A stretch of DNA of 64,000 nt from Candidatus Roizmanbacteria bacterium (GTDB lineage: Bacteria; Patescibacteriota; Microgenomatia; UBA1406; GWC2-37-13), in assembly GCA_037130495.1 (NCBI GenBank), contig JBAXSX010000003.1, forward strand, positions 13,793 to 77,792, in the 5' to 3' direction. The notes beneath the pieces were generated by a model. It was not told the origin of the DNA. It saw only the letters and a program-made list of their open reading frames with translations, and made no database searches. Of this stretch, positions 18,367 through 37,945 are shown one piece after another. The stretch's first letter is position 1. Every line of letters begins with the position of its first letter. Made by a program: the position numbers and the translations under genes.

Positions 18367-18388
18367 CACATGTCTCACGTGCATATGT

Positions 18389-20074: not shown

Positions 20075-20164
20075 ATCTAGGGAATGAGTATATATAACCA
20101 AGTATAAAATAGCTCCAAGGTGAGGGAGTCCGCCTAGACGACAGGGAGTTCTGTGCAGGCTGAA

Positions 20165-21004: not shown

Positions 21005-21068
21005 ACATTTATTCTAGCACAAGCGAATAGTTTTGGGCCTACATGACTGCATAGTTGATAGATTCCTT

Positions 21069-22253: not shown

Positions 22254-22506
22254 AGGATGTACCAAATGATTGAAGTGATTCGACGTGAGCGAGAGTTATA
22301 CTCGCATACTCCCTTGAGAGTCACCGACGAGTGAGCACGAGAGGTATTATAGTCGCGTCGAGGCAGGAAATGTGTTTGTAATATCTGTTACATCATCACC
22401 TTTCAAAACAGACCCCATACTGGTAGATGTACTCCAGAAGATTACTCGGAAATGAGGTGATTTGGATGCTGAGAAGGTGGGATATATCGACACCTGGTTC
22501 TCAAAA

Positions 22507-23094
22507 TCACAATTGAGGATTGCTTATCTGGTCGTCAATATATGAGAGAGTTGCGTTGCATAGATGTCTCTCTTTCATTCCCATTTTCGTATTGAGAGAT
22601 TCGTTGATTGTGGTGCTATCTAGAGTAACGAATACCTGTATTCCGCAAACTTGATGTAAGATTTGTGTATACCTTTCGCGATTTATATAATCAGCATCGC
22701 TATAGTCGAGACGAATAATTCTGTTGAGCTGGTCGATTCTATACCCTTTTTGCTTCAGGGTTGCTAAGGTATCCTTTCCTCCGAGGTCACTTATTCTCAC
22801 AAGACATCCTGCACCACTGCAGCGACTTTCTACGGACCACTGAGTGGGGACTCTGATGCCCTGTGCCATTGTTGGCATTTCTTTGCCAATGATTCGCCAT
22901 TGTATATCAGCTAGGACTGCATCGTACGTCTTGTTCATCATATTGAACCGGTCGACATTGGGCTGCGTACGTATTTTTTGCTGCATTCCCAAGTAGAAGC
23001 CCACAAAGGGGAAAATAATAAATAGGAACATTGCTAAATACCTAGAAAATGGAGTGACTTCATTCCATCGTATTGCTATTTTTGGCTTCTTCAT
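22507..23094 (-). CDS. Hypothetical membrane-anchored protein
   Basis: Long ORF with one N-terminal TM helix (YLAMFLFIIFPFVGFYLG). No recognisable domain. Confidence 0.55.
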   Translation of the reverse strand: MKKPKIAIRWNEVTPFSRYLAMFLFIIFPFVGFYLGMQQKIRTQPNVDRFNMMNKTYDAVLADIQWRIIGKEMPTMAQGIRVPTQWSVESRCSGAGCLVRISDLGGKDTLATLKQKGYRIDQLNRIIRLDYSDADYINRERYTQILHQVCGIQVFVTLDSTTINESLNTKMGMKERHLCNATLSYIDDQISNPQL

Positions 23095-23126
23095 TTGTTT
23101 GCGGGTATATCAATATTTCGGTGATA

Positions 23127-24197
23127 TTAACGTTTCACTGTATTCTGATTTATCGAATCGTAACACTCGGCAAGCATATTGATGGGGAACTCAGGATATG
23201 ATGAGAAGGCTGAGCACTCAATCGTCCCGTTGCCATCCCAGACCAATTTCCACACACCATCTTCTTTCACGGCGTACCACATGCCTCCGCCTCCCTCTTT
23301 GTCTGACACTCCTCCTTTAGCATACTTTCCTTCGATCTTTGATACTGTGATGGTGAGCGAGGTATCGACAGTGTTGTGTTTCAGCGCTATATACTTTCCC
23401 ATAACATATTTGAGGGTTGCCGACTCATCTATGGTGGGGAGGGGAGTGAGCGGTGCACTGATTTTCACCGTTGCGATCATTTTTTCATAGATATTGAGAT
23501 CACTTGCGTTCTTTAGAGATACTCTTATCAGGGCTATTTTGTTGCCTGGGATCTCAAAGAAAGTGATTGGTAAGGACGCAGACCCTTTTGAGGTAGGTGG
23601 GACACCATTGATCGTCATGGGCTGCACCATCCATGTTGCCTCATATCCCACGGTGCCACCAGACGTCGTGATTTTCTTGATAGAGCCTAGAGTATTGTAA
23701 TTTTGTATTTCTGCACCAGCCACCTTCACATATTCTTCAAGTGATAGATTGGCGTAACTACCGAGTGCGTTGCCTTTTGAGATGACGATAGCAGCACTTA
23801 CATCAGCATCGGTCGGCTTGAGCATAGGATCGAAGGACGCGCCAGTCTGAGAGTTAGCAAATTCGCTAGCAACCCAATCGCTTGGATAGTCCATCGAGTA
23901 GCTATATTTTGTATTTTCATACGTTTTCCATGTGGTTTCTTTGACCGGAGGGGAAGTGGGGACTACTGGACTCGATGAAGTGGGGACTATTTGACTTGCT
24001 GAAGTAGGCACTGCCGTAGGCTTGGCCGTGGCAACTGCACCATTTTGACCTTTGCCTAGGAAATACATCCCAATGCTGGAGGCCACGAGTACCGGGATTG
24101 CGATGACCAAACCGATGATGATGGGGGCGGGAGATCGTGGAGAGGGAGCGACAGGTAGAGGGACAGTTGGGGGGATTTTTTCTTGCATATATTTCAT
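23127..24197 (-). CDS. Hypothetical membrane-anchored extracellular protein
   Basis: Pro-rich N-terminus, one TM helix (IIIGLVIAIPVLVASSIGMYFLG) and a Pro/Thr/Ser linker. ATG at 24197 (24230 is GTG). Confidence 0.55.
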   Translation of the reverse strand: MKYMQEKIPPTVPLPVAPSPRSPAPIIIGLVIAIPVLVASSIGMYFLGKGQNGAVATAKPTAVPTSASQIVPTSSSPVVPTSPPVKETTWKTYENTKYSYSMDYPSDWVASEFANSQTGASFDPMLKPTDADVSAAIVISKGNALGSYANLSLEEYVKVAGAEIQNYNTLGSIKKITTSGGTVGYEATWMVQPMTINGVPPTSKGSASLPITFFEIPGNKIALIRVSLKNASDLNIYEKMIATVKISAPLTPLPTIDESATLKYVMGKYIALKHNTVDTSLTITVSKIEGKYAKGGVSDKEGGGGMWYAVKEDGVWKLVWDGNGTIECSAFSSYPEFPINMLAECYDSINQNTVKR

Positions 24198-24264
24198 GAT
24201 CTCAGAAAAACTCAACTGAGTCAAATACACTCGTTCCGATTAGGAAACGGTATCATTTTCGTGC

Positions 24265-24966
24265 CTATTTCTTACCGCAGTTCCAGTAGCATGGTCCAAC
24301 TGTGCTTATGATATTTTCCCGCGGGACAAATCCCCACTCACGTGAGTCGGAGCTCTCTGGTCTGTTGTCACCCAGCATGAAGTACTGACCGGAGGGGATC
24401 TGCACTGTTTGCTCCTCAGCCAAAAAAGTACTCCCTGATGTATACACTGTAGATGATATGTATTTGCCTTCATCTAGTTTTTTTCCATTTATATATATGT
24501 CACCCGATCTGAGCATCACTGTTTCTCCGGGTAGCCCAACGACTCGTTTGATGTAATCTACTCCTGCACTTTTTGGTGACACAAATATTAAGACGTCACT
24601 TCTTTTAACCTTCGTATTATTTTGGTTTACTACATCCGTCATCACATACATGCCGTTAGTGTAATTCGGATACATTGCTACACCTTTGATCTGGTACGGT
24701 CTGCTCATGAATAAGTAGATGAACGTGGGGATCGAAGAGAGGAAAAGGATCGAAAAAAGTAATCCAAATGGCACAGCTATCACGATCTTGAGCCACTTTG
24801 GAAGAGATGTCCATACACAGAGGAGGACAATGCCAACTATGCCGAGGAGGGGGAAGATGAGCCCAATCAGGATCAGTGCTCCTACGAGAACCATTCTCAA
24901 TACGTGAGCATTTCTTGGTAGAGGTTTTTTACTAACACCTTTGTCGAGAAGGTGATTGTAGGGCAT
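24265..24966 (-). CDS. Signal peptidase I (S26) homolog with Ala at the nucleophile position
   Basis: Box D YIKRVVGLPGETV and box E GDNRPESSDSREWGFV are present. Box B reads KGVAMYPNY instead of G-x-S-M-x-P-T (codon GCA at 24678..24676). Confidence 0.8.
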   Translation of the reverse strand: MPYNHLLDKGVSKKPLPRNAHVLRMVLVGALILIGLIFPLLGIVGIVLLCVWTSLPKWLKIVIAVPFGLLFSILFLSSIPTFIYLFMSRPYQIKGVAMYPNYTNGMYVMTDVVNQNNTKVKRSDVLIFVSPKSAGVDYIKRVVGLPGETVMLRSGDIYINGKKLDEGKYISSTVYTSGSTFLAEEQTVQIPSGQYFMLGDNRPESSDSREWGFVPRENIISTVGPCYWNCGKK

Positions 24967-25028
24967 GATTTAGTATATCAAAAAGTCAGAAATGTTCTGA
25001 ATTCGCGATTTCAAAACACATCTTCGTC

Positions 25029-25433
25029 TTAACTCAAATCCGTAAATGGATTGTAGGCTACCTCCCACAAGTACCCATCATGATCGGCAAAATATCCTGA
25101 GTACCCACCCCAGAATGCATCTTGGGGTATCTTGATAGATTGTGCTCCCGCATCCAGAGCTTCCTTATAGATCTTGTTCACTTGTTCTTTCGAGGAGACA
25201 TTGTGCGCGAGAGTGATAGAGGAGAGTCCTGGACTCACGGTCGGCAAGGAGACATCCTTGATCAGTTCTTCCTTGGGGCACAGTGCGAGCCATGTGCCCT
25301 CCATTTCTAACATAACATATTCATCTTTCCCATTGTAGTCGTGGGGTTTGAAACCAAGTCCAGCGGTATAAAAATCAAATGATCTATGGAAATCGTGTAC
25401 GCCCAAAGTGATTATGCTGATTTTTGATTTCAT
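25029..25433 (-). CDS. VOC/glyoxalase-bleomycin resistance family protein
   Basis: 134 aa with the typical VOC start ISIITLGVHDFHRSFDFYTAGLGF and C-terminal DHDGYLWEV. Confidence 0.8.
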   Translation of the reverse strand: MKSKISIITLGVHDFHRSFDFYTAGLGFKPHDYNGKDEYVMLEMEGTWLALCPKEELIKDVSLPTVSPGLSSITLAHNVSSKEQVNKIYKEALDAGAQSIKIPQDAFWGGYSGYFADHDGYLWEVAYNPFTDLS

Positions 25434-25509
25434 GATTTGATTATACTTTCTGGGCAGTTCACATGCTGAGTGACATAGAATGTGAATATGTAAGATGCAC
25501 CTCGGGGGA

Positions 25510-26217
25510 TCAGAGCCTGCTTATATCTACTTGCTGATCCTTTGGATCTGCTGGATCTGAGTAAATATAATCTGCAATATCAGTACTCGGTATGACACCA
25601 TAGTCTGAGATGAATTTATCTACTTTGATGTCGGGATTGGTCTTAGTGAGCTCAATTAGATTCGTAAAGAGCTGGTGAAGTTCCAGAGAAGGATAAGTAT
25701 TCAAGCCAAACTCTACTTCTTTGCTATCACCTTTAATTAAGCAGTTATGGTAAGTGAAATCCGTTCCATTCCTGCGTTGACCTGTGCGTCTTACGTGCGC
25801 AATTTCTCTAATATCCTTCAGGAGCATTTCATCTTTGCCAAATAGAGTTTGTGAAATGATACGGTCTCGTTTTAGTATTACTTTAAATCTTTTATTGAGT
25901 ATGAAGAAAAGAAGTTCAAATAGTGCTACTCCGATCACAAATTCCTTTACAGAACTTGCGTTGATGCCTCTAAAAATAATATAAAAGGGAGTCCCAATAA
26001 AGAGAGCAAACTGCATGAAAATCATGCTGAAGTGTACTTGGGAAACGATGCCTTGATTTAAGTTGACAGTATTTGAGAGGAGAGGAGGTGGCGTACTGAT
26101 TGAATCTGAGGCGGGGGGCAATGTAGAAATGACAAGCGGAGTATATGTAGGAGTCTGGCCAGATGGAATATCTGTTTGCTGTGGTATGAAATTGGGTATT
26201 ACTGGATCGTTTGTCAT
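25510..26217 (-). CDS. Hypothetical membrane protein
   Basis: Pro/Thr-rich N-terminus and two TM helices. No recognised domain. Confidence 0.5.
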   Translation of the reverse strand: MTNDPVIPNFIPQQTDIPSGQTPTYTPLVISTLPPASDSISTPPPLLSNTVNLNQGIVSQVHFSMIFMQFALFIGTPFYIIFRGINASSVKEFVIGVALFELLFFILNKRFKVILKRDRIISQTLFGKDEMLLKDIREIAHVRRTGQRRNGTDFTYHNCLIKGDSKEVEFGLNTYPSLELHQLFTNLIELTKTNPDIKVDKFISDYGVIPSTDIADYIYSDPADPKDQQVDISRL

Positions 26218-26333
26218 ATGATTCCAATCATATAGATATTACCAATCGAGCGCAAGCCTATGCCTGATATGTTTGTGTAAAATGGGTTCATTGGAGGTAT
26301 TTCAGATCAGAAGGATTGCAAGCGCTGATGATT

Positions 26334-27188
26334 TTACTGCTCAAGGCTTTGAACCCGAGGCTTACTGGCATTTTCGACCGATGGTGTCTCACATGTAGCA
26401 GTTGACTTCGTGTCAATCACTGCCATCAATCCTTTACAACATTTGTCTGTATTGTTTGGACAGATTATTCCATTGATACAAATTGACTCACCTATCTGTT
26501 TGCACTGTGCGTCAGTCTCTGCGGGAACTGCAGGCACTGATGTGATTGCGGTGGCCGGAGGTTGAGGCATAGTCCCTTCTATCTTTAGCGCATACGAGAC
26601 TCTTTGCATAGAGTCCTCATTGGCTAGCGTAAAACAATATGCATAGCTGACATCCGTACATCTCGGTGGTGCAGTAATACAATCTGTATCCTTTATTGTA
26701 TAGTCCTTTATTTCTTCGATTGATCTAGCTAGTTCATTTTTCCAATTCAATTCCTTTATCTTAAAGGTAACAGAATCTTTTGTAATGGCACTTAAAGTAG
26801 CAACGGTATCCTCGACGCAACTATCCTTAGGAGAGAAATGGAAAGTATCACCTAAAATGACTTTTTTGTCTTGAAAGAGTATTGATCTGTACATTTCAGG
26901 GGATGGGGCAGTGCCCAAAGTGGGAGATATCAGAACGGGGATATCTACTGATGTTGGGGTGATAGATACCGGAGGTATATTTTCGACCTTATCAAATCTG
27001 GTATTCACATACCATCCTCCTCCAGCTATGATCATAACCAGTACAGTTAGTCCCACTATCAGGAGTGGGATAAACACCCCGTTGTTACTTCGAGCATGAT
27101 TACCCTCAACCTGAGGTGCACCAGGCGTTGTAGGTCGCTCTTGGACTGGGGAACTGTTCTGTGCTTTCGGAACGACATTCTGATCCAT
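26334..27188 (-). CDS. Hypothetical membrane-anchored, Cys-rich extracellular protein
   Basis: One TM helix (VFIPLLIVGLTVLVMIIAGGGWY) and a C-terminal Cys cluster (CKQIGESICINGIICPNNTDKCCKG). Confidence 0.5.
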   Translation of the reverse strand: MDQNVVPKAQNSSPVQERPTTPGAPQVEGNHARSNNGVFIPLLIVGLTVLVMIIAGGGWYVNTRFDKVENIPPVSITPTSVDIPVLISPTLGTAPSPEMYRSILFQDKKVILGDTFHFSPKDSCVEDTVATLSAITKDSVTFKIKELNWKNELARSIEEIKDYTIKDTDCITAPPRCTDVSYAYCFTLANEDSMQRVSYALKIEGTMPQPPATAITSVPAVPAETDAQCKQIGESICINGIICPNNTDKCCKGLMAVIDTKSTATCETPSVENASKPRVQSLEQ

Positions 27189-27218
27189 AGGTTGAGTATA
27201 GCAAAAACACCTTGTTCA

Positions 27219-27899
27219 TCAAAGTTTCGCATCGGGATCATCGTAGAGTTCTTTTAGTGTTCCAACTGTTCTTGTCAATCTAGCTAAAACCTCTTTATGT
27301 TTGTATCCGGCGATTACATTTACACCTGCAGAGATAAGAGCTTCGTTAATAGGGAGAATTGAAGGGGCCGTTCTCACTTCTTTAAACCCATCACGAAATT
27401 GAACGTGCATTCCTCTTAAATCCTGTTGGGATAGAGCGTACACTAACGTACCAACGTTGGTATTTCTCATTGCACCAGCACACATCTCACAGGGCTGAGC
27501 AGTGCTGAGTATGAGACATCCATCGAGGTGTCGGTTCCCGATATGTTGTTGTGCCTGTGTAAGTACCACCATTTCTGCATGTTGGGTAGAATCACCTCGT
27601 GCCTTCACCATATTTGTTGAACGCGCAAGTACCTCAATTGCTCCGTTGACATATCTTACTACTGAGGCGGCAAACGGAAACTCAGTCTTTTCAGGATCAT
27701 CAGGATTAGGAAGTTGCCCGAGCAACTCATCGAATTCCTGACTGAGACCTGGATGACTTGCCTCAAACTCTCTTATTAGTCTTTCGTGTTCTTCGGACCA
27801 CAGCCCTTCAAGAGCCCCACCTGGATCACTGTTAACTCCCGCAGCACTTTTATATCGAGCAAAGTCCTGACTGAAATCTTGATGTGTTGATTCGCTCAT
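27219..27899 (-). CDS. CMP/dCMP-type zinc deaminase (TadA/guanine-deaminase-like) with N-terminal extension
   Basis: Zinc motifs HAEMVVL and PCEMCAGA. About 85 extra N-terminal residues compared with typical ~150-aa family members. Confidence 0.8.
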   Translation of the reverse strand: MSESTHQDFSQDFARYKSAAGVNSDPGGALEGLWSEEHERLIREFEASHPGLSQEFDELLGQLPNPDDPEKTEFPFAASVVRYVNGAIEVLARSTNMVKARGDSTQHAEMVVLTQAQQHIGNRHLDGCLILSTAQPCEMCAGAMRNTNVGTLVYALSQQDLRGMHVQFRDGFKEVRTAPSILPINEALISAGVNVIAGYKHKEVLARLTRTVGTLKELYDDPDAKL

Positions 27900-27995
27900 A
27901 ATATGTATTCGAACATTGCTTTTGATAAACGGAACCTACTGCCATGCCTATGGTAGATAAGAGTATATAGGCTCTATGGATGGTTTTGTAGAAGA

Positions 27996-28619
27996 TTAAG
28001 AAGTTAGTTTATTTATTTCCATAATCAAGTCTTTACTCGCTTTTACATAATCAGATGAGTCGTAAAGAAAAGTATTCCATCCCGCTTCTTTTGCAGCAAG
28101 AACATGCTCCTTGCTGTTTTCTATAAATAATATCTGGCGAGGGCCAACACCCGCTCTCTTCTGAGCGAGTTCAAATATTTCCTTTTGAGGTTTGCGTACC
28201 TTTTCAATACTTGAGTCGATAACTACAGTCCATTTTGTCTCGGGGATCAATCCCTTTTTATTTATCGCATCTAACATACCAGGGTACATATTAGTCAGCT
28301 GACCAATTCTAATATCTTTTGGTATGGATGCGAATACAGGTACAATTGAATCATTTTTCTCAAATCTATCAACGAATTCATCGAGGAAGGAATACCGATC
28401 GGGAAAGTTCAATCCAAACTCCTTTTCCATCAGGGGAACCAAAGATTGTATATCGGTACCCAGGCAGATCTCCTTCTCGTAAATGGCGAAGAACTCACTA
28501 AAGGCGTCATCATGGCCTGCGTCTATTCCAATACTACGTCTCAATTCCTCCCACTTATTTGTGCAACTAAAATCTTTGAGTAGAACACCGCCTACATCAA
28601 AATATATAAACTTAATCAT
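27996..28619 (-). CDS. HAD-superfamily hydrolase (FDxGGVL subtype)
   Basis: Motif I-like IYFDVGGVLL and a later FIENSKEHVLAAKEAGW. Start set at ATG 28619. Confidence 0.7.
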   Translation of the reverse strand: MIKFIYFDVGGVLLKDFSCTNKWEELRRSIGIDAGHDDAFSEFFAIYEKEICLGTDIQSLVPLMEKEFGLNFPDRYSFLDEFVDRFEKNDSIVPVFASIPKDIRIGQLTNMYPGMLDAINKKGLIPETKWTVVIDSSIEKVRKPQKEIFELAQKRAGVGPRQILFIENSKEHVLAAKEAGWNTFLYDSSDYVKASKDLIMEINKLTS

Positions 28620-28687
28620 ACGAGGTAGATTTGCATGCCTTTCTCTGCCATATTCCTGAATGGTGGACCGCATTGGAACCACTAAGG

Positions 28688-28969
28688 TTACTCTATAGCG
28701 AACATAATTTTTTCCTTGCAATTTTTATTTGCTGTGTCTATTAATCCACTCATGTCATGTTTTTTGGTCGAGATTTCTGTTCCATCGCTGACCCAAACTG
28801 CGATTGATTGATCAAGCTGTTGAACGACATATTTGACGTCACATTTAGAGAATGCGGATTGTATCTGTTCCCAACTGCGAGCTGGTTTGATAAAAGTGTC
28901 TGCTATGAAATACAAAAGAATACCAGCGAGAATAATCAAAAATAGATAGAGATACTTATTTTTATGCAT
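28688..28969 (-). CDS. Small membrane-anchored hypothetical protein
   Basis: 93-aa ORF with an N-terminal TM helix (YLYLFLIILAGILLYFIA). Confidence 0.4.
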   Translation of the reverse strand: MHKNKYLYLFLIILAGILLYFIADTFIKPARSWEQIQSAFSKCDVKYVVQQLDQSIAVWVSDGTEISTKKHDMSGLIDTANKNCKEKIMFAIE

Positions 28970-29060
28970 ATATTATTGGTAATAACGATATGTTCTCCGC
29001 TTTCATGTGTAAACCAGACCTGCTCGTACTCCTACCGATTGATAAGAGTATAATAGCCCT

Positions 29061-29444
29061 ATGAACACTTTTGTACAAGATATCGAACAACTCACTCTAA
29101 CCAATACATACTTCAGGAAAGTGATATATACAGGTCAACATGCACAGCTTGTGGTCATGTCATTGCTCCCGAACGAAGACATTGGTATGGAAGTGCACGA
29201 AACGACTGATCAGTTCCTCAGGATTGAAAAAGGCGAGGGAAAAGTCATCATGAATGGAGAAGAGCACCTCATCAAAGACGGGAGTGCAATCATCGTCCCG
29301 GCGGGAACCCAACATAACATCATAAATACATCATCTAAGAACCCGATGAAGCTATATACGATATATTCACCTTCACATCACAAAGACGGGACTGTCCATG
29401 CTACGAAGCAGGAGGCAGAGGCAGATACTGCAGATCATATATAA
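29061..29444 (+). CDS. Cupin-domain protein
   Basis: Cupin motifs GMEVHETTDQFLRIEKGEG and IVPAGTQHNIIN. Confidence 0.75.
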   Translation: MNTFVQDIEQLTLTNTYFRKVIYTGQHAQLVVMSLLPNEDIGMEVHETTDQFLRIEKGEGKVIMNGEEHLIKDGSAIIVPAGTQHNIINTSSKNPMKLYTIYSPSHHKDGTVHATKQEAEADTADHI

Positions 29445-29532
29445 CTTCAGGGCTGATTTGCTCCAGGCAATAGACGATGTTCCGACTTATCACTCTTTTG
29501 TGACCTAAAAGTTATCGATAACCTAATAAAAA

Positions 29533-29844
29533 ATGAATACTATAGATTTTCTCAGACAATTTCGCATTGGAGGATATGCACTATTTGATCTCGGCATATC
29601 ATTTTTAGGAATCTATTTGCTTTCACCAATATTGTCAAAGATATTTCTCAAGCTTGGGATTAAAATACCAAAACGAAGCTGGTTGTTATTTACGTTACCA
29701 TTGAGTATCTTGATCCATCTTCTCATAGGAAAAATGACTCTTATGACGAAAAACTTTATTGACCCACATGGTCAGTATGTGCTGAAAATATTGATTTTAG
29801 GTTTATTTGCTCTTGGAATAAAAGGTGTAAAGAGAGTTAAATAA
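29533..29844 (+). CDS. Small membrane protein
   Basis: 103 aa with three predicted TM helices. Confidence 0.45.
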   Translation: MNTIDFLRQFRIGGYALFDLGISFLGIYLLSPILSKIFLKLGIKIPKRSWLLFTLPLSILIHLLIGKMTLMTKNFIDPHGQYVLKILILGLFALGIKGVKRVK

Positions 29845-29925
29845 ATATAGATTGCCAATCTGCCTGATATCCACTTGCTCTCTCAAACTGAACCAACATG
29901 AGCTTGTCCTGTTACAATTTGAAGA

Positions 29926-30144
29926 ATGAATCTAAAAAACGATAGTTACGAAATCTGTATCGGCACGAAAAACTTCACCGAAAAGTATTTCAGAGATGAA
30001 AAAGGATGGCTAAAGATTTCAGCAACGGGTAAGGAATTTCGAATGACTGCTGAACAAGCACTCAATCATATGCTGCCTGCAATGGCAGGTGTTAAACCGA
30101 ATCTGATCCTGAAGGTAGAACATCACGAGATGGATGAAACGTAA
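29926..30144 (+). CDS. Hypothetical small protein
   Basis: 72-aa ORF with an ATG start. No motif recognised. Confidence 0.3.
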   Translation: MNLKNDSYEICIGTKNFTEKYFRDEKGWLKISATGKEFRMTAEQALNHMLPAMAGVKPNLILKVEHHEMDET

Positions 30145-30213
30145 ACAATTGTGTTCCTCGCATGGAAACACGTTGAGTAACTGAGAGATCGAAATGATTG
30201 TGCCACCTGCATA

Positions 30214-30954
30214 CTATTCACCAACACGATTTTTAGACTCGAGGGCAATCACCACTGAAGAATGAAACCCTTTTGCGACGAGCCAGACTCCGAGTGAAAG
30301 CTCAAATAGCGCGACAAAAAGTGCAGACAGTCCAGCCAATGGGTCATGCTGCCCAACGAGCCCGAACACGACCGCGAGGTAACCAGCGATGAGTACGGGC
30401 CCCCCGATGATACCAATCAGAGAAAGGCCTCTAGGTACCAGGCGTGACTTGTATAGTAAGAAGCCCAACAGCAAATCGTTTATGGCCGGCATGAAGCTTT
30501 GGCTCAGTAGGAAGATGCGATCATACAGTATCGCAAGTGTGTGGCTGGTAACCAACGCGTTTGTTCCTGCCTCGATCTGCCGTAGAGTGACTATTGTTAA
30601 GATGCATGCCACGCCAATAAAAATAGAGCTTGCCTCCAGAACTCTGGAGGCGATGAGACCCAGCGCAAGGCTTTCATTCTGCTTCTTGAGGGTAGGGAAG
30701 AGCACGACTGCAGTGCTGATACCTGCGAGGGCCACGATGATCTCGAGGACACCTCCGATCATAGCAGCGGTATCTGGGCCAGCACCAAGGATGTAGCTCG
30801 CACTTTTGACCTGGGTATAGAGTACAAGTGATGGGATTGAGACGAAGGTGAGGAGGTAGAGTACACCTGCCGCTAATGATATTTTTCTGGAGGACTGCAA
30901 AATTCTCTTATCTGTCTCGAGTATCTGTGTGTTTGAGTATATTTTTCCTTGCAT
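30214..30954 (-). CDS. DUF4386-like membrane protein
   Basis: About 6 TM helices. The N-terminal LAAGVLYLLTFVSIPSLVLY pattern is typical of the family as I recall it. Confidence 0.55.
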   Translation of the reverse strand: MQGKIYSNTQILETDKRILQSSRKISLAAGVLYLLTFVSIPSLVLYTQVKSASYILGAGPDTAAMIGGVLEIIVALAGISTAVVLFPTLKKQNESLALGLIASRVLEASSIFIGVACILTIVTLRQIEAGTNALVTSHTLAILYDRIFLLSQSFMPAINDLLLGFLLYKSRLVPRGLSLIGIIGGPVLIAGYLAVVFGLVGQHDPLAGLSALFVALFELSLGVWLVAKGFHSSVVIALESKNRVGE

Positions 30955-31063
30955 CGCTCATCGTAACACATAAAAAATTTCTCGTACAAGAGGATGTTCG
31001 TCCAGAATCATCTAGATGATGATCATCAGGAGGTTAAATAATTCCGTCCAAGAACTGCAGCAT

Positions 31064-31603
31064 TTACGCAGCATGTTTTTGTCTCGAGTTCCTTAGTCTC
31101 TTTATTAGGTAGAGAGTCAACACTAAGACTAGAATGACGATAAGGAATCCAATTTGGAATATTGGGTCACCGATTTTTTCCTTGAATGTTTGAATGATGT
31201 GAGCTGTCTGATTGATTTTAATGTACTCAATCGTATTCCCAGAAAGCGATGGGCCGAAATGGCCGTTTTCCTGACGATTAAGCCAAATCTTTATTACATC
31301 TCCGTTTAGCACCGTCACAGAAGAAGAGCCGAGTTCCAAACGATTTTCTGGAACATAACGGAAATCAACTACGAGAATATCACCAGACTTAACTGCTCCA
31401 TTGGCTCCTTGAGCATCAGAAATAAGTATATTAAAGGTTCCGGCGTCTCCAGTTATTTGTCTGTCTTGAACTTCTCCAATTACCACCATTTCCGAGTTCG
31501 TCTGAGCTTCCTCAACTTGTTGAGGCGATGGAACTGCGTAAATGGATCTAGTCGAAAGAAATAGATAGAGCAGAATTGAAAAGATAGCAAGTGGCTTTCT
31601 CAT
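31064..31603 (-). CDS. Hypothetical secreted protein with C-terminal membrane anchor
   Basis: Signal peptide MRKPLAIFSILLYLFLSTRSIYA and a C-terminal TM helix (IGFLIVILVLVLTLYLI). Confidence 0.55.
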   Translation of the reverse strand: MRKPLAIFSILLYLFLSTRSIYAVPSPQQVEEAQTNSEMVVIGEVQDRQITGDAGTFNILISDAQGANGAVKSGDILVVDFRYVPENRLELGSSSVTVLNGDVIKIWLNRQENGHFGPSLSGNTIEYIKINQTAHIIQTFKEKIGDPIFQIGFLIVILVLVLTLYLIKRLRNSRQKHAA

Positions 31604-31766
31604 AGTAGTGTATTTTATGAAATATGCTTAATGTATATGTACATATTACTATGATTTGGTTCGAGAATCATAATGCAAATATAGCCGTATAGTTTTCATG
31701 CACTATGAAGGTTTTCGCTGACTTTAGGCTTGGTTGTCCTGAGTTTATCGAAGGATAGCTCAAAAA

Positions 31767-32357
31767 CTAATCTGCTTTGTATTCGATACCACCCAATCTC
31801 TCTAGGGATACTTTCTGACCTGTTTTATCTATAAGTACGTATGCACAATCTGCGATATCGAAAACTCTATCATCACTCAGGATGTCACTAAGAACTGTCC
31901 AAATAGGCCCACCGTGTGTAACGATGCCAATCGTTGAGTAGTTTTCACTACTTGCAACTTCCGCAAACACGTCCTGTATCCTTTCTACAAAATCATCTTG
32001 AGACTCAGCTCCTTGTATTTGACTTCTGTAGTTCTTCAGTTCTTCGACCAATTCCGGATACTGTATTTTTGCTTCGCTCTTTGTCATTCCCGTCAGAATC
32101 CCATTCTTATTTCTTTCTTTTAAATTTTCAACTGTTTTAACCCCACACCCTAACTTAGCTTTTAGAATCATTGCAGTTTGCTGTGCACGTATCAAAGGAC
32201 TACAAAATAGGATTTGTATACCTGAGGTCTCTAGCTTATGAGCAAGTTCGTGGGTCTGAATAGTACCCTTGTCCGACAACTCATCATCATGGGCACCCCC
32301 ATATCTATCCTCAGTATCACCAGTGGTTTGTCCGTGTCGAATTAGATAAATCTTCAT
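31767..32357 (-). CDS. Histidine phosphatase family protein (phosphoglycerate mutase-like)
   Basis: IYLIRHGQT catalytic motif and a downstream VTHGGPI. Start set at ATG 32357. Confidence 0.85.
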   Translation of the reverse strand: MKIYLIRHGQTTGDTEDRYGGAHDDELSDKGTIQTHELAHKLETSGIQILFCSPLIRAQQTAMILKAKLGCGVKTVENLKERNKNGILTGMTKSEAKIQYPELVEELKNYRSQIQGAESQDDFVERIQDVFAEVASSENYSTIGIVTHGGPIWTVLSDILSDDRVFDIADCAYVLIDKTGQKVSLERLGGIEYKAD

Positions 32358-32541
32358 TGTTATTGTAAATATCATACACTCTCCGGACTCAAGGTATTGA
32401 TGAGGCATCACTCAGTAGACGAAGGAGCAACTGGCTTTTCTTCATTGTTCCGCTCTGACCGAAGCTTTGCTCAATCGCATTAAGGCTTTTCAAAAACCCT
32501 GTATGGGCTTCATAGCTAGAGGAAGATTGAAATAAAACTGC

Positions 32542-32760
32542 TTACTTCAATTTCTTGATTATTTCTGAAACTTTTGGACCGAAGTGAAGTAGAGAATACA
32601 ATAAAAGCAAGCCGCCTATTGTGGTTGCTATGCTTTCTAGTGAATATTTTTCAAATAGGTCAGCCCTTAACTTATATGCTGAAACTCCAACACCGAAAAA
32701 AATTAAACCAATTCCCAAAGAAAGTAAATTCACGTATCGATTGATTATTTTCTTCTCCAT
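32542..32760 (-). CDS. Small two-TM membrane protein
   Basis: 72 aa with two hydrophobic helices. Confidence 0.4.
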   Translation of the reverse strand: MEKKIINRYVNLLSLGIGLIFFGVGVSAYKLRADLFEKYSLESIATTIGGLLLLYSLLHFGPKVSEIIKKLK

Positions 32761-33021
32761 ACTTATTAAAAACTACCAGCGCGGAAGAATATAAAGATTA
32801 GCGCAACAATGATAACCAAGAAAAACCATATTCTTAATAGTTCCTGTCTTTAATTTTTGATAGTTTAATTCCGATCATTCATAGACTTGCTATCATGTCT
32901 TTATGATACATTAATTTGGTTAGAAAATGAGCTATTTGCTCCCCCCTAGTAGACATGTTTCGGAACAGGGAAATAGATTTTGGGATTAGTCTACAGAATA
33001 TCAAAGCTGTTTTGAGTTATT

Positions 33022-33282
33022 TCACTCTTTACAACCAAGCATTGCTTTCCCATCGCAATATTGCCCGGGTAATGGCGAATTAAGTGCTTTATATATGAGC
33101 CCAAAAACAGCGAACATGGGGGCTTCACGAGGCACCTCTATGATCACCGGCACACTCTCTGCACCTTTTATTGGCCCGGCGACCATTTCAAAACCCGGAA
33201 CCTGTTCACGTAATTGAGCAACTCTAGAAGCTTGATTAGGACTCATCCTACAGGGGAGTGAATATGGGAGTAATTCAGCCAT
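33022..33282 (-). CDS. Hypothetical protein
   Basis: 86-aa ORF with an ATG start. No motif recognised. Confidence 0.3.
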   Translation of the reverse strand: MAELLPYSLPCRMSPNQASRVAQLREQVPGFEMVAGPIKGAESVPVIIEVPREAPMFAVFGLIYKALNSPLPGQYCDGKAMLGCKE

Positions 33283-33348
33283 TTACTTATTGAGTATACA
33301 TCAGACCTGTTCTACAAACGGTTAATATTGTCAGATTCAAACGTCTTG

Positions 33349-33420
33349 CTCCCCGGCGAGGATTCGAACCTCGAACCTTGATGTTAACAGCATCCTGCTC
33401 TACCGTTGAGCTACCAGGGA
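33349..33420 (-). tRNA. tRNA-Asn (anticodon GUU)
   Basis: Minus strand reads TCCCTGG-TA-GCTC-AACGGTA-GAGC-A-GGATG-CTGTTAA-CATCA-AGGTT-CGAGG-TTCGAAT-CCTCG-CCGGGGA-G. It has U1-A72, G73, U33 and A37. One G27-A43 mismatch; no encoded CCA. Confidence 0.85.
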
Positions 33421-33663
33421 AATTTGTTTGCGTATGAACTCTCTACCTCGATATGACTTAAGTTGCTTCTCGCGGACTAAAGCCTCGTTTCGGTTAGTAA
33501 CTCTCTCAGTATAAATCACTACCCAACGTCCATCAAAACGAGAAGTGTATGTATGGCAAAAATCATGGTCATTGTGTTGCCCAACTCTTTCATCTAGGTT
33601 AACAGTCTGACCGACATATATTTTGTCATGTCTCGGATTGTAAAGTGCGTATACAGTCACCAT
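33400..33663 (-). CDS. GIY-YIG nuclease (YhbQ/UPF0213-like), copy 1; 3' end overlaps tRNA-Asn
   Basis: YALYNPRHDKIYVGQTVNLDERVGQHN ... REKQLKSYRGREFIRK is the GIY-YIG core pattern. The last 21 nt are the first 21 nt of the tRNA (ISLVAQR*). Confidence 0.75.
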   Translation of the reverse strand: MVTVYALYNPRHDKIYVGQTVNLDERVGQHNDHDFCHTYTSRFDGRWVVIYTERVTNRNEALVREKQLKSYRGREFIRKQISLVAQR

Positions 33664-34024
33664 CTTTCAATGGTACCTCATCCTACCTACCTCCGCCAGC
33701 TGGCGGAGAGCTACCAGGGAAATTTGTTTGCGTATGAACTCTCTACCTCGATATGACTTAAGTTGCTTCTCGCGGACTAAAGCCTCGTTTCGGTTAGTAA
33801 CTCTCTCAGTATAAATCACTACCCAACGTCCATCAAAACGAGAAGTGTATGTATGGCAAAAATCATGGTCATTGTGTTGCCCAACTCTTTCATCTAGGTT
33901 AACAGTCTGACCGACATATATTTTGTCATGTCTCGGATTGTAAAGTGCGTATACAGTCACCATCTTTCAATGGTACCTCATCCTACCTACCTCCGCCAGC
34001 TGGCGGAGAGCTACCAGGGAAATT
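33408..34024 (-). mobile_element. Perfect tandem duplication (2.06 copies) of a 300-bp GIY-YIG cassette abutting tRNA-Asn
   Basis: 33408..33707 and 33708..34007 are identical in every 60-nt line compared. Each unit is the tRNA 5' mimic TCCCTGGTAGCTC, an 18-nt palindrome CTCCGCCAGCTGGCGGAG, an SD-like GGATGAGG, and the ORF. Confidence 0.85.
33667..33963 (-). CDS. GIY-YIG nuclease (YhbQ/UPF0213-like), copy 2
   Basis: Identical to copy 1 for 84 aa, then reads through the 13-nt tRNA mimic into the hairpin module (ISLVALRQLAEVGRMRYH*). Confidence 0.7.
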   Translation of the reverse strand: MVTVYALYNPRHDKIYVGQTVNLDERVGQHNDHDFCHTYTSRFDGRWVVIYTERVTNRNEALVREKQLKSYRGREFIRKQISLVALRQLAEVGRMRYH

Positions 34025-34229
34025 GATTAATCGTGTGCTATCTACTTTGATTGGTACCGCATCCTGTCTACCTCCGCCAGCTGGCGGAGAGTTATCAGGG
34101 ATATCGATATTTTGAAAAGTACATGTCTATTCTACCAAATAATCTCTACAGCAGGTGGGGACCTGACGAGAGTCTAGTTACAAGCACGAGATATCGTGAG
34201 GTGAAGAAGCATCCTCCAGTTTTGAGCAC

Positions 34230-37200
34230 TCATGGTGCAGCAGCAAAGGCAGCGTCACCCTGATATTGACCCAACTGGTCGGTGCCATAATATATAGTCG
34301 CTGGAACAGTGGTGAGGGCAGTGGGACTGCTGAGGCTGGCCTTGGTAACTCCGTTCACCTTCAACACATCTTGCAACGAGTTGTAGTTGATCGTGATCGC
34401 GTAGGTAGTGCCAGCCACTATCGCACCTGTCGCATCCCAGGTGGTCGTGATCCTCGTGCCATTTCCTCTGTGATGGAACTGCACTATATTATTTGCTCCC
34501 CAGTAGGCAAGGATATAGTTGTTGCTATCTCCGAATATAGTCACTATAGCCGCATCTAGTGATGTTGTCCCGCCGAAGTTCAGCATATTTGCAGCCGAAT
34601 GGCGAGGGGTGTAATTGAACGAAATCTCTCCAGCTGATGTTGTTAAGTTATACACACTTTGGGTCAATGTGTCTTTGCCATCTACCCGGACTCCGCTCGC
34701 CTCAGTACTATTGGCCAGCGATGCGGGGGTGAGGGTGAGGGTAACAGCGGTCAGGGCGAAGGAATAAAAGTCATCGATATAATACTGAAAGCCGGATCCT
34801 GTCCCTCCCCAACTTTGAACATCCAAGTATGCGAAATTTTGATCCGCTCTATGTGTACTCGGGTACAAACTCCATGCAGTTGAGCTTATTGTATTTAAAT
34901 TCCCTCCATCCACCCCGCCCATGGTTTGTCTGGGGAACCAAGGCTCAAAGTGAGTTATAGGTGATATTGTCCCTGCAACTTTTTTCCCAAAGACCCCAAC
35001 AGAATAATATTTGCCTTGAGTTACACTGCTATAGCTGAATTTGATTCCTTTATTATAGCCAGCCGTCAAAACTTGTACCCCAGATGATCCAGAATGCATG
35101 TTCGCAACTTCTTGTATGCCCTCACCTGCAACCAGATTATTGTTGGACCAGCCTGTGGGTATCCACGGATTGCCAGCTCCAACTTCGAGTGATGGATTTG
35201 TAATGTTGTTTGCTTGTACCTCCACCTGATGCCAGTAGCAGGTACCGGTGGCTGCTGTATTGATGAGTTGTATTTGTTCACTCTCTGCTGCAGGAGACTG
35301 CCAGGTGAATACATATACATCAGGAGCTGTGCGAGTACTGGTCGTAGTCCCTGTAAGAGAGCTGATGACCGTACTCCCATCTGCTCGAGTCACTTGGATC
35401 TTCGGTGCACAGGTCCCATCACTATTGCCTATGGCTCGGAGGACATAGTTCCCATTGAGTGTTGCACTAAATGTGTTGTACATCCCTAGATTCGCAGCAG
35501 TACTGGTGAACTTGTATCCCCCAGAGAATATCTTCTCTCCTGTAGCAAGAGCAGTAGGAGTAACTCCTGCTACTGCAGTACGATTGAGCAGTGCTGCAGC
35601 ACTGGTGATCGCTTGAGCCTGAGTAGCACTCAAGGTGATATCGTAATAGGCTACCGCTGCTACATAGGCTCGTCCAAATCCTGAGATCACTCCTGAGCTA
35701 TTGACACTTCCTCCAATACCCGTACCTTGAGTGATTGATCCACTCCATGTCGGTGTCCACGCTGTTGCGGTCCCATCGACATAGTATGCCGTATCAGTGA
35801 GTGCTATGACTCCTGCAGCACTCATCGCAGGAGTGGCTGGTGCTACACTCATATCTCCATATCCTACGTTACCATATCCAATAGTAAACCGAGGAACGCT
35901 GCTATAGCTCATGAGTGGTCCACTGATACCTGAGGTATATTTCAACACTGCACTGTAGTGTGTTGCTGGATTGAGTCCACTGTACAGGATACGTCCTCCA
36001 TCAAAGTACCATCCATTCACTGCATCCCATGTCGGACCACTACTCCCATACAGTGTATTGACTCCAGGATTTGCAATATTTGTTTTCGCATCTGTCACAC
36101 TTGCTGCTCCCACTGCTTGATAGACTGCTACCGCATTGGCTTGCGGTACTCCTCCTGCAAGATACCAGGGAACTATGGAGATACCGTTCCAGTTATCATT
36201 CACAGCTGTCCCATTCATCATATATCCCCCTGTATTTGTGGTATTGGTATACAGGAGATTACTTGCATGCGGATGACTCCATGCTTCACCCGTCGTACCC
36301 AATGCTCCTACCGTACTATTCGTTGGTAATGCAAATACGACATCCCAGGATCCAGTGACTAATGTAGGATCTTTCCCTGTTCCTCCATTGTAAATCTGAC
36401 TGACTTCATCTCCATTCCCTACATTGATACCCGATGGTGTTGTTGCTTCGTAGAGAGGACGTCTATAAATAGTGAGACCTTGGATAAGGGCGTTGGCTGA
36501 ACTATTAAATAGTGTCTGATTGCCTATATCTTGAAGAGCTGAAAAACCTATTCCAGTAATAGCAGTTCCCGAAAATGTATTTGTTCCGTTTACACTAAAG
36601 CGAACATAATTAGTGCCATCAAACTTATTTTTGCTGTCCCAGCTAACAATAATGTTGTATGTTGTGCCTGCAGTCCAAGAGGAAATAGACGGCCCATTAA
36701 TTTCGTGTCCTACAGAATCTGTAAAGTGAAGTGTATTATCTGTTTGCTTGAAGAAAGTTCCAAATCCTCCAGCTGACCCAAAGATTCCGTGACGTAACCC
36801 ATCGTTGCCAGCCCATTCAGGAGTGATCCATAACACAATTGAGCCTTGATCTCCATCTACGTTTTGATAGAAATTTCCACTTACTTGATTGCCACGAGGG
36901 AAAGTTACTGTATCTGGTGTTCCACTTACATCAGTCTTTCCTTGCACCATTACCCCAGCTGCAAATGGCCCGGCGGGGGGAGTGCGTTTGGCTATAGCAG
37001 GAGTGAATGTTCCTGCTGCAAATGCCATGATAGTAGAAGGAGGAGTAATGAACTCATCAGGTACTTGACCATACACAGCTACATTCACTCCAGACTGGTT
37101 TACGAGTGATATCCCTGTGGGTGAATACACTCCTATCTTCCCTGAGCTATTGGCTACAGCACTGTATCCGGTACTGTATGTACTGGTACAGTCTTTCACT

Positions 37201-37541
37201 ATGTTCCCGGGACTATTAGGATCAATCGGTAATCCAGCTATATGAGGAGAAAGTAATCCACACAGATCTGCCTCAGGACCTCCTGAGTTCTTTGCTATTG
37301 GCTTAGGAGTATTCAAGGGATACATCTGAGTAGGGACTACTCCTTTCATAGATACGAGATACGTATCTAATGACTTCCCTATGGTAGATACATCAGATGA
37401 GCGTTTCGTCTGTTGAGCAGCAGCAAACATACGGAAGGGATTCACTGCTACCAGTACTACAGTCATGAGGACTGCAATGATGAGGGTAGCGACTAATACT
37501 TCAATGAGAGTAAATCCACGAATACCACGGTGGCGTATCAT
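34230..37541 (-). CDS. Giant (1103 aa) pilin-like protein with LamG/ConA-like domains
   Basis: From ATG 37541 the N-terminus is [30 protein letters not shown] (prepilin motif). LamG_3-like stretches occur at [23 protein letters not shown]... and near the C-terminus. The upstream in-frame 39 aa are repeat-derived. Confidence 0.75.
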
Positions 37542-37544
37542 ACA

Positions 37545-37945
37545 GTCAGTATACGCAAAGACAGTCCATAAAGTCCATCGCGCCTGCCTGTCGGCAGACA
37601 GGTCAAACGCGACTATGTGGGATGCGTAAAGTCTGTAAAGTCCATAAAGTGACACCACAGTGTCATCCTGAATGATCCTTAAGCATCAGATCCTTCGCTA
37701 CTCTCAGGATGACATGGGAGAGAGATTCTTCACTCCGTTCAGAATGACCCTGCATGGTTCACTTCTCGACAGGCTCGAAGTGACATGCTTCTCGACCCCG
37801 CAGAGCGGGGCAGGCAAGGCTCCGCGGGACAAGTCAGGTTATAACGTTGTCAAGTTATCAAGTAAAACACGGTCGAATTGCTGCAACATTAAATTGTTGA
37901 GGAAGCTCCGCGGGAGAAGTCAGGTCGAAAGTCATCACCACAAAA
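37545..37945. repeat. Dense cluster of GC-rich palindromic modules (400 bp, non-coding)
   Basis: Hairpins cctgtc-ggca-gacagg (37587..37602) and gtcatcctga...tcaggatgac (37662..37713). Direct repeat gctccgcggga[c/g]aagtcaggt at 37819..37839 and 37905..37925. Modules are shared with the 40.0 and 53.1 kb clusters. Confidence 0.8.

Follow-up and report, generated by a model that had tools for sequence, protein, structure and literature searches.

A GIY-YIG nuclease cassette with a GC hairpin in a partial tRNA duplicate at tRNA-Asn of Candidatus Roizmanbacteria and its relatives

Why does an intact tRNA-Asn gene form the start of a perfect tandem repeat of small nuclease genes, each headed by a copy of the 5' end of that same tRNA? 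The question is raised by a locus in a metagenome-assembled genome (MAG) of Candidatus Roizmanbacteria (GCA_037130495.1, contig JBAXSX010000003.1), which we analysed within a window of 64,000 nt (13,793-77,792 of the forward strand); coordinates given below without a locus name are positions in this window. We found that the locus carries two identical cassettes, each with an open reading frame (ORF) for a minimal GIY-YIG protein and a 16-nt GC hairpin lodged in a partial tRNA copy, together with a third, ORF-less module. The cassette feature is real and widespread. We favour the reading, at a probability of roughly 55 %, that a selfish cassette colonising tRNA genes is present here three times in a row, as two young, identical copies and one old copy without an ORF.

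The tRNA-Asn locus and its array

The features of the locus are listed from the tRNA outwards, followed by one related feature elsewhere in the window.

33349..33420, minus strand: intact tRNA-Asn(GTT) (ARAGORN; Rfam RF00005, 61.5 bits against a 29-bit threshold)
33408..34024, minus strand: tandem array, period 300, 2.1 copies, 100 % identity (Tandem Repeats Finder and repeat finder)
33400..33663, minus strand: proximal GIY-YIG ORF, 87 aa, ending ISLVAQR and stop (ORF call, PF01541 match)
33664..33690, minus strand: leader between hairpin and ATG (sequence, tRNA comparison)
33691..33708, no strand: hairpin copy 1, 18-nt palindrome CTCCGCCAGCTGGCGGAG with core TCCGCC-AGCT-GGCGGA (repeat finder, DNA fold)
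33708..33720, minus strand: copy of tRNA nt 1-13, head of the proximal cassette (sequence)
33667..33963, minus strand: distal GIY-YIG ORF, 98 aa, ending ISLVALRQLAEVGRMRYH and stop (ORF call, PF01541 match)
33991..34008, no strand: hairpin copy 2 (repeat finder)
34008..34020, minus strand: copy of tRNA nt 1-13, head of the distal cassette (sequence)
34021..34044, minus strand: 24-nt spacer from module 3 to the distal cassette, without significant ORF similarity
34045..34101, minus strand: module 3, ORF-less, 50/57 positions matching the cassette leader
34129..34137, minus strand: extended -10-like motif TGGTAGAAT, 28 nt upstream of module 3 (sequence)
53076..53091, no strand: fourth exact 16-nt hairpin core, nested in a longer stem, no Rfam match

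An earlier note, made from the sequence alone, had described a minus-strand tRNA-Asn, two identical 300-bp units beside it and a third, decayed module without an ORF, and this description held. The tRNA was recovered by ARAGORN (33348/9..33420) and scored above the covariance-model threshold with Rfam, and repeat finders gave 100 % identity between 33408..33707 and 33708..34007. The tandem array starts within the functional tRNA-Asn. Both units could be read in the order that had been proposed: on the minus strand, TCCCTGGTAGCTC (tRNA nt 1-13), the 18-nt palindrome, a 27-nt leader and the ORF. The ORF ends were also as claimed, the proximal ORF stopping within the tRNA and the distal ORF reading into the next hairpin. 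Nucleotides 1-21 of tRNA-Asn double as the final codons and TAG stop of the proximal ORF, with tRNA nt 19-21 forming the stop. The distal ORF is the same as the proximal one over its first 85 aa, through the shared 13-mer at 33708..33720 that provides its 3' codons, and then continues across the hairpin. Both ORFs are annotated in the source record (MEI6326782.1 and MEI6326783.1). The leader at 33664..33690 consists of a degenerate remnant of tRNA nt 18-32 (GGTAGGTAGGATGAGG) and a Shine-Dalgarno (SD)-like GGATGAGG/GAAAG.

Module 3 is made of a decayed 13-mer, TCCCTGATAACTC, with two G>A changes, an intact copy of the same palindrome (34072..34089) and then GGTAGACAGGATGCGGTACCAATCAAAG; its sequence after the hairpin is that of tRNA nt 18-32 with a 1-nt deletion. 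It adjoins the promoter; its orthologue by position in two related loci (L002/L017) is the single leader there. Judged by its sequence, module 3 appears to be the oldest module, an ancestral cassette without its former ORF. The 24-nt spacer that follows was considered as the remnant of a deleted ORF and rejected, being no better than shuffles (p = 0.8). On the promoter side, the -10-like motif was missed by a consensus promoter scan because it has no -35 element. The perfect 300-bp duplication, in a two-copy state as assembled in the MAG, is more simply explained by recent tandem amplification between the flanking repeats than by two independent insertions.

Recurrence of the cassette and constraint on its parts

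Relatives were collected by a genome scan, which yielded 7 loci, and by a metagenome scan, which yielded 413, the best 80 being retained. The 80 Patescibacteria loci analysed (67 distinct ORFs) are the most similar of the 413 matches, with duplicates included, and are all metagenomic. The earlier note had proposed a tRNA-linked cassette and suggested a survey for GIY-YIG ORFs ending in tRNA 5' ends. We found the tRNA 5' end at or just after the ORF end in 80/80 loci, and not a scatter of homologues at unrelated sites lacking the tRNA mimic. The ORF ended 9 nt inside the tRNA in 57 loci (stop formed by U8-A9-G10) and 20 nt inside in 9; altogether the stop codon lay within the tRNA in 67/80. Where the ORF stopped short of the tRNA, we noted that the intact tRNA was bracketed by 8-11-nt inverted repeats, for example CTAAGTCGAGC-tRNA-GCTCGACTTAG (L025 1540..1660, L087 2240..2335, L093 505..615, L095 2240..2350), which would lengthen the precursor acceptor stem.

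In most loci where ARAGORN saw no tRNA, a group I intron splits tRNA-Asn. Such introns, which follow the anticodon-loop CTGT, were matched by Rfam RF00028 at 86-95 bits in L054 (2302..2514), L074 (2203..2469) and L084 (2338..2557), and were also found in L019, L049/51/58, L057, L064, L070, L073 and L077. One single-copy tRNA-Asn hosts two kinds of selfish insert. A separate observation concerns the other end of the gene: L097/L098 carry a large serine recombinase (Resolvase + Recombinase + Zn_ribbon_recom; 1834..3252) downstream of the cassette-bearing tRNA-Asn and L099-L102 do not, so that the 3' side of tRNA-Asn is polymorphic for an integration.

The same hairpin arms accompany ORFs 42-48 % identical in two further phyla, Ignavibacteria (L005) and Bacteroidota (L006, L104, L105, L111). 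L005 sits on tRNA-Met, where promoter and 5' part are duplicated and the hairpin replaces about nt 22-31. The Bacteroidota cassettes, on tRNA-Met (L006, L104, L105) or tRNA-Val (L111), have a mirror order of real tRNA, terminator, ORF and displaced tRNA 3' part, with the hairpin replacing about nt 38-48. Tandem arrays starting inside the tRNA were found here too: 348-bp units in 3.0 copies at 99 % identity, from the tRNA-Met T-arm (L104), and ORF-less 121-bp units in 2.5 copies, from within tRNA-Met (L105). Both are independent occurrences of such an array.

How closely does the duplicated segment follow the tRNA beside it? The first 13 nt of the local tRNA were repeated upstream of the ORF with 0 mismatches in 66/80 loci (53/67 distinct ORFs), which span 15 acceptor types, and the acceptor 7-mer took 18 forms among the 80 loci. 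The D-stem variants GCGC (6 loci) and GTTC (2 loci) were mirrored on both sides of the hairpin. In module 3, the post-hairpin GGTAGA-CAGGATGC matches tRNA GGTAGAGCAGGATGC (nt 18-32); related loci have GGTAGAGC directly after the hairpin, and the 8 nt that follow it equal the local G18..C25 in 58/80 loci. Since tRNA sequence resumes after the hairpin, the duplicated segment is the 5' third of the tRNA, with the hairpin in the place of D-loop nt 14-16. The simple 13-bp target-site duplication offered in the earlier note is ruled out, as tRNA-derived sequence extends past the hairpin (nt 18 to ~30). The match fades at about nt 27-30, with a limit at U33; the longest mimics, at U33-U35, end near the group I intron site. 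The acceptor strand is tracked by the mimic while the equally variable anticodon-stem strand is not.

We then compared the window with its relatives L001 and L002, at a synonymous divergence (dS) of ~0.6-0.7. The 13-mer was unchanged and the 16-mer showed 0-1 change; for 13 neutral sites in three lineages, the expectation is about a dozen changes. The post-hairpin leader is less conserved than either. The 13-mer decays by transitions when no ORF follows or in some old copies (module 3, L045, L067). On these comparisons ORF, 13-mer and hairpin are maintained together. A leader pairing TGGTA/TACCA in the window fold was dropped, not being conserved in L002. A TATAAT-like box lies 6-10 nt before the ATG in L003, L004, L027, L030, L040, L050, L052, L061, L072, L075, L092 and L095, a placement that suggests a promoter of its own and a leaderless or near-leaderless mRNA. 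The window leader has no such box and carries the SD-like GGATGAGG instead.

The hairpin arms TCCGCC/GGCGGA were invariant in 90 distinct contexts and the N4 loop varied (AGCT, AGCC, GGCT, AACT and others). A pair count gave invariance only and no covariation in the hairpin. In the window the core TCCGCCNNNNGGCGGA was counted 4 times, with 0.06 copies expected, so chance is excluded; 3 of the 4 are at the tRNA-Asn locus. With Rfam, the cassette leader and hairpin gave only tRNA at the gathering threshold and otherwise chance-level matches (E up to 5). More distant GIY-YIG ORFs stacked at tRNA-Asn (L078, L049/51/58) carry the tRNA 5' end with different GC hairpins, which fits cognate nuclease-hairpin pairs. 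One locus obtained in the scans, L007, has a GIY-YIG ORF of another subfamily (38 % identity) that is not beside a tRNA and is flanked by inverted hairpin repeats, GTCAT-TCCYGCGRAAGCRGGA-ATCCAG (2949..2975 and ~3262..3290; also L007 4405 and L081 1795). The pairing of a GIY-YIG gene with a hairpin repeat may be more general.

PF01541 matched both ORFs (scores of 48.3 and 47.9 bits, cut-off 22.6 bits, E ~1e-12), and Y5, Y16, G18, R26, H30 and E65 were invariant in 44 sequences. Beyond PF01541, no curated NCBIfam/Pfam subfamily model matched; TIGR01453 reached 20.7 bits against a 56-bit cut-off. An AlphaFold2 model of the 87-aa protein (pLDDT 94) is a single domain of E-E-H-E-H-H topology, for which Foldseek gave UPF0213 BH0048, At-HIGLE, Slx1 and EF2693 as the nearest solved folds (ranks 1-11: 1zg2, 7wme, Slx1 entries and 1ywl; best E 1.7e-3, which is modest). 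The I-TevI catalytic domain appeared at ranks 12 and 14 only, and sequence similarity to I-TevI was confined to the N-terminal 37 residues (E 0.004). UPF0213 BH0048, HIGLE and Slx1 cut DNA that is branched or forms stem-loops. The 83-87-aa protein has no DNA-binding domain. Based on the model, we assign it as a single-domain Slx1/UPF0213 (YhbQ)-type GIY-YIG protein and a predicted structure-specific nuclease; the YhbQ-type label of the earlier note thereby gains support from Foldseek. dN/dS was 0.05-0.28 in 40 pairs (0.15 for the proximal ORF against L001 and L002), which places the ORF under purifying selection.

A profile search returned 8,981 clusters at 50 % identity, 699 of them at E <= 1e-10. 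The tRNA link was visible in the proteins themselves: of 120 representatives of homologue clusters, 83 have [IVL]-P-x or VAQ[RW] at their C-terminus, which is the translated tRNA 5' end, and 13 over-long gene calls start ...VALRQLAEV..., the translated mimic and hairpin. Nothing specific was found for membership of a defence system or phage family. PADLOC defence models gave only 33-residue N-terminal matches to PDC-S14 (E 2.5e-4 or weaker), and in viral contigs the protein scan gave N-terminal motif matches only and the mimic-hairpin DNA pattern 0 matches. A 2006 survey of GIY-YIG domains described the prokaryotic Slx1-like proteins as minimal and vertically inherited, with selfish GIY-YIG genes coming from another lineage, and reported an Slx1-like domain fused to a TrmH-type tRNA G18 (D-loop) methyltransferase (PMC1564403). 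This fusion is an independent hint that the nuclease lineage may deal with the D-arm of the tRNA, the part in which the cassette hairpin is lodged.

Elsewhere in the window, the fourth hairpin core lies in an ORF-free, hairpin-rich spacer (52879..53215), where TCCGCCAGCTGGCGGA is nested in a 12-bp stem (DNA fold z = -5.3). The same spacer contains a palindrome at 53155..53184, CCCGCCAG[GTACCGTACGGTAC]CTGGCGGG, whose outer arms are the core of the cassette hairpin. No Rfam family was found in the spacer at 52.9-53.2 kb at E <= 1; it could consist of solo or nested hairpins of the cassette system, or be an unrecognised structured RNA. A tRNA-Met(CAT) at 49873..49943 on the minus strand has no cassette and no hairpin nearby. 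In the Roizmanbacteria genome the system is specific to tRNA-Asn, though Bacteroidota relatives use tRNA-Met. We also noted a LOOT RNA (RF03000) at 58772..58891 on the plus strand (61.5 bits against a gathering score of 46.4 bits).

Turnover, transfer and the mode of spread

Is the cassette a resident of its locus, or does it move? Divergent ORFs stand in tandem in L092, L078 and L049. These stacked cassettes fit the repeated arrival proposed in the earlier note; its other element, insertion after nt 13, did not survive the comparison of mimic and tRNA. ORF-less modules lie proximal or distal to the ORF in the window, L052, L084, L092 and L105, and the most distal copies of arrays are the most decayed. 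Hairpins are nested in hairpin loops (L003, L020, L021, L023, L034, L041, L074, L082) and are also found in the D-, anticodon- and T-loops of spare pseudo-tRNAs (L092, L093, L095, L025).

The clearest trace of replacement was found in L087. Its upstream arm TCCGGCGTGGCGC (TCCGGCG) mismatches the adjacent intact tRNA-Asn (TCCCCTG...CGGGGGA) and is complementary to a displaced T-arm/acceptor fragment (...CCGCCGGAGC, CGCCGGA) just downstream of the intact tRNA. On this arrangement L087 is a fossil in which the resident tRNA-Asn was split by an incoming block of hairpin, leader, ORF and complete foreign tRNA-Asn, with the switch at the hairpin. Arms of another acceptor type are also present in L071, L082 and L018. 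Cassettes at other tRNAs, namely tRNA-Thr in L068 (arm 10/13) and another tRNA in L076 (arm 13/13), fall within the tRNA-Asn cassettes in a tree that is otherwise unresolved. Homology of the window to its closest relatives L001/L002/L017 (~85 % nt) is limited to the block from 34139 (promoter motif) to 33345 (tRNA 3' end). There was no flank synteny with these closest loci and the neighbouring genes are unrelated. Just upstream in the window, for example, a 1142-aa protein with an N-terminal prepilin-type motif (34230..37658, minus strand) has no counterpart beside the L001/L002 cassette.

Stacked cassettes of divergent sequence, ORF-less modules, nested hairpins, the replacement fossil in L087 and the restriction of homology to one block speak for a selfish cassette driven by recombination and against a host gene. 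We propose the following mechanism. It builds on what the sequences show: the anatomy of the cassette, its recurrence in 80 loci and in three phyla, the constraint on its ORF, its 13-mer and its hairpin, and the replacement fossils. Nuclease activity, its substrate and all mobility steps are inferred. The cassette comprises a minimal Slx1/UPF0213-type GIY-YIG gene and its cognate 16-nt GC hairpin set in a partial tRNA duplicate. In Patescibacteria it lies between the tRNA-Asn promoter and the tRNA body, in the order tRNA nt 1-13, hairpin for nt 14-16, tRNA nt 18 to ~30, leader, and ORF running into the real tRNA. As the ORF enters the real tRNA and borrows its stop codon, the tRNA stays intact and the nuclease gene can use the tRNA promoter. 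The nuclease would nick or cut stem-loop DNA, either its own hairpin or a cloverleaf-forming tRNA gene, and the break would be repaired by recombination via the short tRNA-derived arms. In this way a copy of the cassette, often with the tRNA, could enter tRNA alleles that are naive or different, by a process resembling homing or Campbell-type integration. Unequal exchange between the repeated tRNA segments would produce tandem arrays, ORF-less modules and deletions, the perfect 300-bp duplication in the window being the latest amplification of that kind. Repair via the arms would also keep the upstream arm in agreement with the local tRNA. Ends-in and gap-repair models of integration were set aside, since under them the hairpin should be lost or should turn up in the real tRNA.

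Several observations weigh against this proposal. No empty site or presence/absence polymorphism was found, the closest loci having no flank synteny. A neighbour-joining tree of the 80-aa proteins is star-like and unresolved, which leaves horizontal transfer to individual fossils only. The ORFs are mostly intact, strongly constrained and deeply diverged, which also fits a long-term vertical resident. An intact tRNA beside the nuclease gene poses a problem of self-immunity for homing by cleavage of the empty tRNA allele, and 13 nt are short for RecA-type recombination. In the lineage of the window, the post-hairpin arm has an old 1-nt deletion shared with L001/L002, so this arm is not regularly refreshed from the tRNA.

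The strong purifying selection on the ORF, and a 13-mer and hairpin far more conserved than synonymous sites, would also suit an essentially immobile resident gene whose tRNA mimic works at the RNA or regulatory level, with arrays that are ordinary tandem duplications. The mimic might stand in as acceptor 5' strand and pair with the 3' strand of the tRNA, RNase P cutting upstream and the ORF keeping its stop. This would be in line with a mimic that tracks the acceptor strand and not the anticodon-stem part, with a stop inside the tRNA in 67/80 loci, which RNase P processing would otherwise remove, and with 2/3 single acceptor-strand changes in the mimic being C>T opposite G and wobble-compatible (L042, L063). 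Alternatively, mimic and hairpin might limit expression of the nuclease, either as an operator or by sequestering the SD sequence in a hairpin (GGAGG lies in its 3' arm). We consider a resident gene improbable. In Bacteroidota, a phylum not reliant on SD sequences, hairpin and pseudo-tRNA lie downstream of the ORF and behind a terminator, and with TATAAT 6-10 nt before the ATG in many leaders the mimic may be outside the mRNA. Mismatched mimics are found beside intact ORFs in 14/80 loci. A resident gene also gives no account of the modules that have no ORF, the hairpins lodged in other loops, the fossil in L087 or the missing flank synteny. A different doubt touches copy number only: the assembler may have crossed a repeat loop twice, the genome then having one young cassette and the old module. 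Identity of 100 % over 300 bp, above typical k-mers, and a short-read-style MAG as source make this conceivable, with a slim chance of being right. Assemblers usually collapse perfect tandem repeats and do not expand them, and the diverged third module with its own junction shows that the multi-module structure is real. Arrays with distinguishing mismatches occur in other assemblies (L104 with 3.0 copies at 99 %, L105, L092), and the protein library contains fused two-domain gene calls.

Could the hairpin itself be what moves? As a hairpin-guided transposon, the cassette would use its GIY-YIG protein as transposase and the 16-nt hairpin as the element end. Hairpin-led DNA, be it a solo hairpin, an ORF-less module or a full cassette, would be pasted into the loops of DNA that forms stem-loops, chiefly tRNA genes, and homologous recombination would not be needed. 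Hairpins do exactly replace a few nucleotides in D-, anticodon- and T-loops of pseudo-tRNAs and are lodged in one another's loops; some stand alone elsewhere (window 53076, L085, L002), and resident and incoming DNA in L087 join exactly at the hairpin. Conserved arms with a free loop, and the fold of a structure-specific nuclease, would agree with such a transposon as well. We nevertheless think it unlikely, since GIY-YIG proteins are not known to act as transposases, strand transfer is not an evident activity of an 83-aa nuclease, there is a single hairpin per cassette, simple pasting leaves the tRNA-derived arms on both hairpin sides unexplained, and the hairpin is little dispersed (4 copies in 64 kb, 3 at the tRNA-Asn locus). 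The opposite possibility is that the hairpin is an independent miniature palindromic repeat with an incidental link to the GIY-YIG gene, both collecting in a recombination-prone tRNA 'junkyard'. Hairpins or similar GC palindromes do lie off cassettes (window 53076 and 53155; L002 737; L074 in a group I intron), and tRNA-Asn also hosts group I introns and has integrases beside it. An incidental link is made very improbable by the same 6-bp arms accompanying the ORF family in three phyla and at four tRNA species, by distinct hairpins in distinct GIY-YIG subfamilies, by a hairpin intact at dS ~0.6 and by its position relative to the ORF, fixed within each phylum. A selfish cassette spread by recombination remains the reading that we prefer.

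Known systems and meaning of the cassette

A full-text search of the literature found no description of the GIY-YIG/hairpin/tRNA cassette arrangement. The cassette works most like a free-standing homing gene combined with the logic of tRNA-regenerating islands and the hairpin-enzyme logic of REP/RAYT or IS200/IS605 systems, an analogy that can be followed part by part. As with T4-type free-standing GIY-YIG homing genes, such as SegB in the T4 tRNA cluster (PMC2330249, PMC2988022), a small selfish nuclease gene would be wedged beside or inside conserved genes. Like such genes, and like a free-standing endonuclease in 'collaborative homing' with an ORF-less group I intron, it would presumably spread by break repair and co-conversion of flanks. 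Both are associated with tRNA genes, the tRNA-Asn of relatives also carrying group I introns. In the 80 Patescibacteria loci the cassette has a fixed site, the tRNA-Asn 5' end, for which a search limited by the absent flank synteny gave no empty allele. Unlike the Seg proteins and I-TevI, which belong to the UvrC+/HEase lineage and have a C-terminal DNA-binding domain, the cassette protein is a bare 83-87-aa Slx1/UPF0213-type domain, and the cassette is bacterial and chromosomal. Homing genes have no cognate hairpin, duplicated target segment, tandem arrays or ORF/tRNA overlap, whereas the cassette has all of these. The protein is closer in nearest folds (1zg2, 1ywl, Slx1, HIGLE), size, single-domain form and structure-specific nuclease ancestry to UPF0213 (YhbQ, BH0048, EF2693) and the prokaryotic Slx1-like proteins. 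These have been treated as vertical and repair-type (PMC1564403), in contrast to the members described here, which are cassette-borne, tRNA-linked and amplified.

Integrase islands and prophages in tRNA genes (attL/attR; PMC9897764) likewise keep the tRNA functional through a flanking direct repeat of part of it, leave partial tRNA copies and stack successively at one tRNA; the tRNA-fragment paper cited here mentions integrase-type elements only. The cassette ORF is flanked by the 13-nt tRNA repeat, continued by nt 18 to ~30 beyond the hairpin, and the tRNA is intact (61.5 bits). Such islands use tyrosine or serine recombinases, usually take the tRNA 3' end and span kilobases, whereas the unit described here is ~300 bp, lies at the 5' end in Patescibacteria and contains no recombinase, the GIY-YIG ORF being its only one; the displaced tRNA copy, unlike those of islands, is broken by a hairpin. 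In 'fractured genes' (PMC2677866) a small endonuclease ORF also interrupts a host gene whose function is kept. There, function is restored at the protein level by split inteins, while the cassette would restore it by duplicating part of an RNA gene. No group I intron was found in the window (no RF00028 match), and its tRNA-Asn is uninterrupted.

A short GC palindrome with conserved arms that is tied to one nuclease gene recalls REP/REPIN-RAYT and IS200/IS605 systems and yeast mitochondrial GC clusters, which accompany mobile ORFs; so do copies without an ORF, palindromes within palindromes and insertion into genes for structured RNAs. In those systems the partner is a HUH (Y1) transposase or a LAGLIDADG ORF. 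In the cassette ORFs no HUH/Y1 transposase was found, GIY-YIG being the only Pfam match, and the hairpin differs from their palindromes in having only 16 nt, lying mostly in tRNA duplicates and being single-ended. Having no DNA-binding domain, recombinase, HUH enzyme or intron ribozyme, the cassette falls outside each of these families, and the chance that it works by a new mechanism is substantial. We suggest, as a tentative possibility, that it represents a new class of DNA mobile element, in which a nuclease of ~83 aa and a 16-nt hairpin would cut stem-loop DNA and install hairpin-led cassettes in tRNA loops. Parts of the tRNA, or all of it, would be duplicated or replaced while the host keeps one working copy, and the process would be recombinase-free, structure-guided and shared by Patescibacteria, Bacteroidota and Ignavibacteria.

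If true, a very small and very widespread selfish element would be added to those living on tRNA genes. The full mimic-hairpin design is readable in most of the 80 loci. Annotation is affected in practice, through pseudo-tRNA fragments, ORF/tRNA overlaps, gene calls that are fused or read through, broken contigs and wrong copy numbers at such arrays. Should the nuclease read the 16-nt hairpin, it would be a compact structure- and sequence-specific nuclease with possible value as a tool, and the Bacteroidota homologues offer culturable test systems. The cassette is also a case of genetic economy, the nuclease ORF probably being transcribed from the tRNA promoter and taking its stop codon from the invariant tRNA U8-A9-G10. 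The L087 fossil and the block-limited homology suggest that essential single-copy tRNA genes in the reduced genomes of the candidate phyla radiation (CPR) are horizontally replaceable within such units. For the Slx1/UPF0213 lineage, so far regarded as non-selfish and with no firm bacterial function, the new-element reading, if true, would provide a first biological role.

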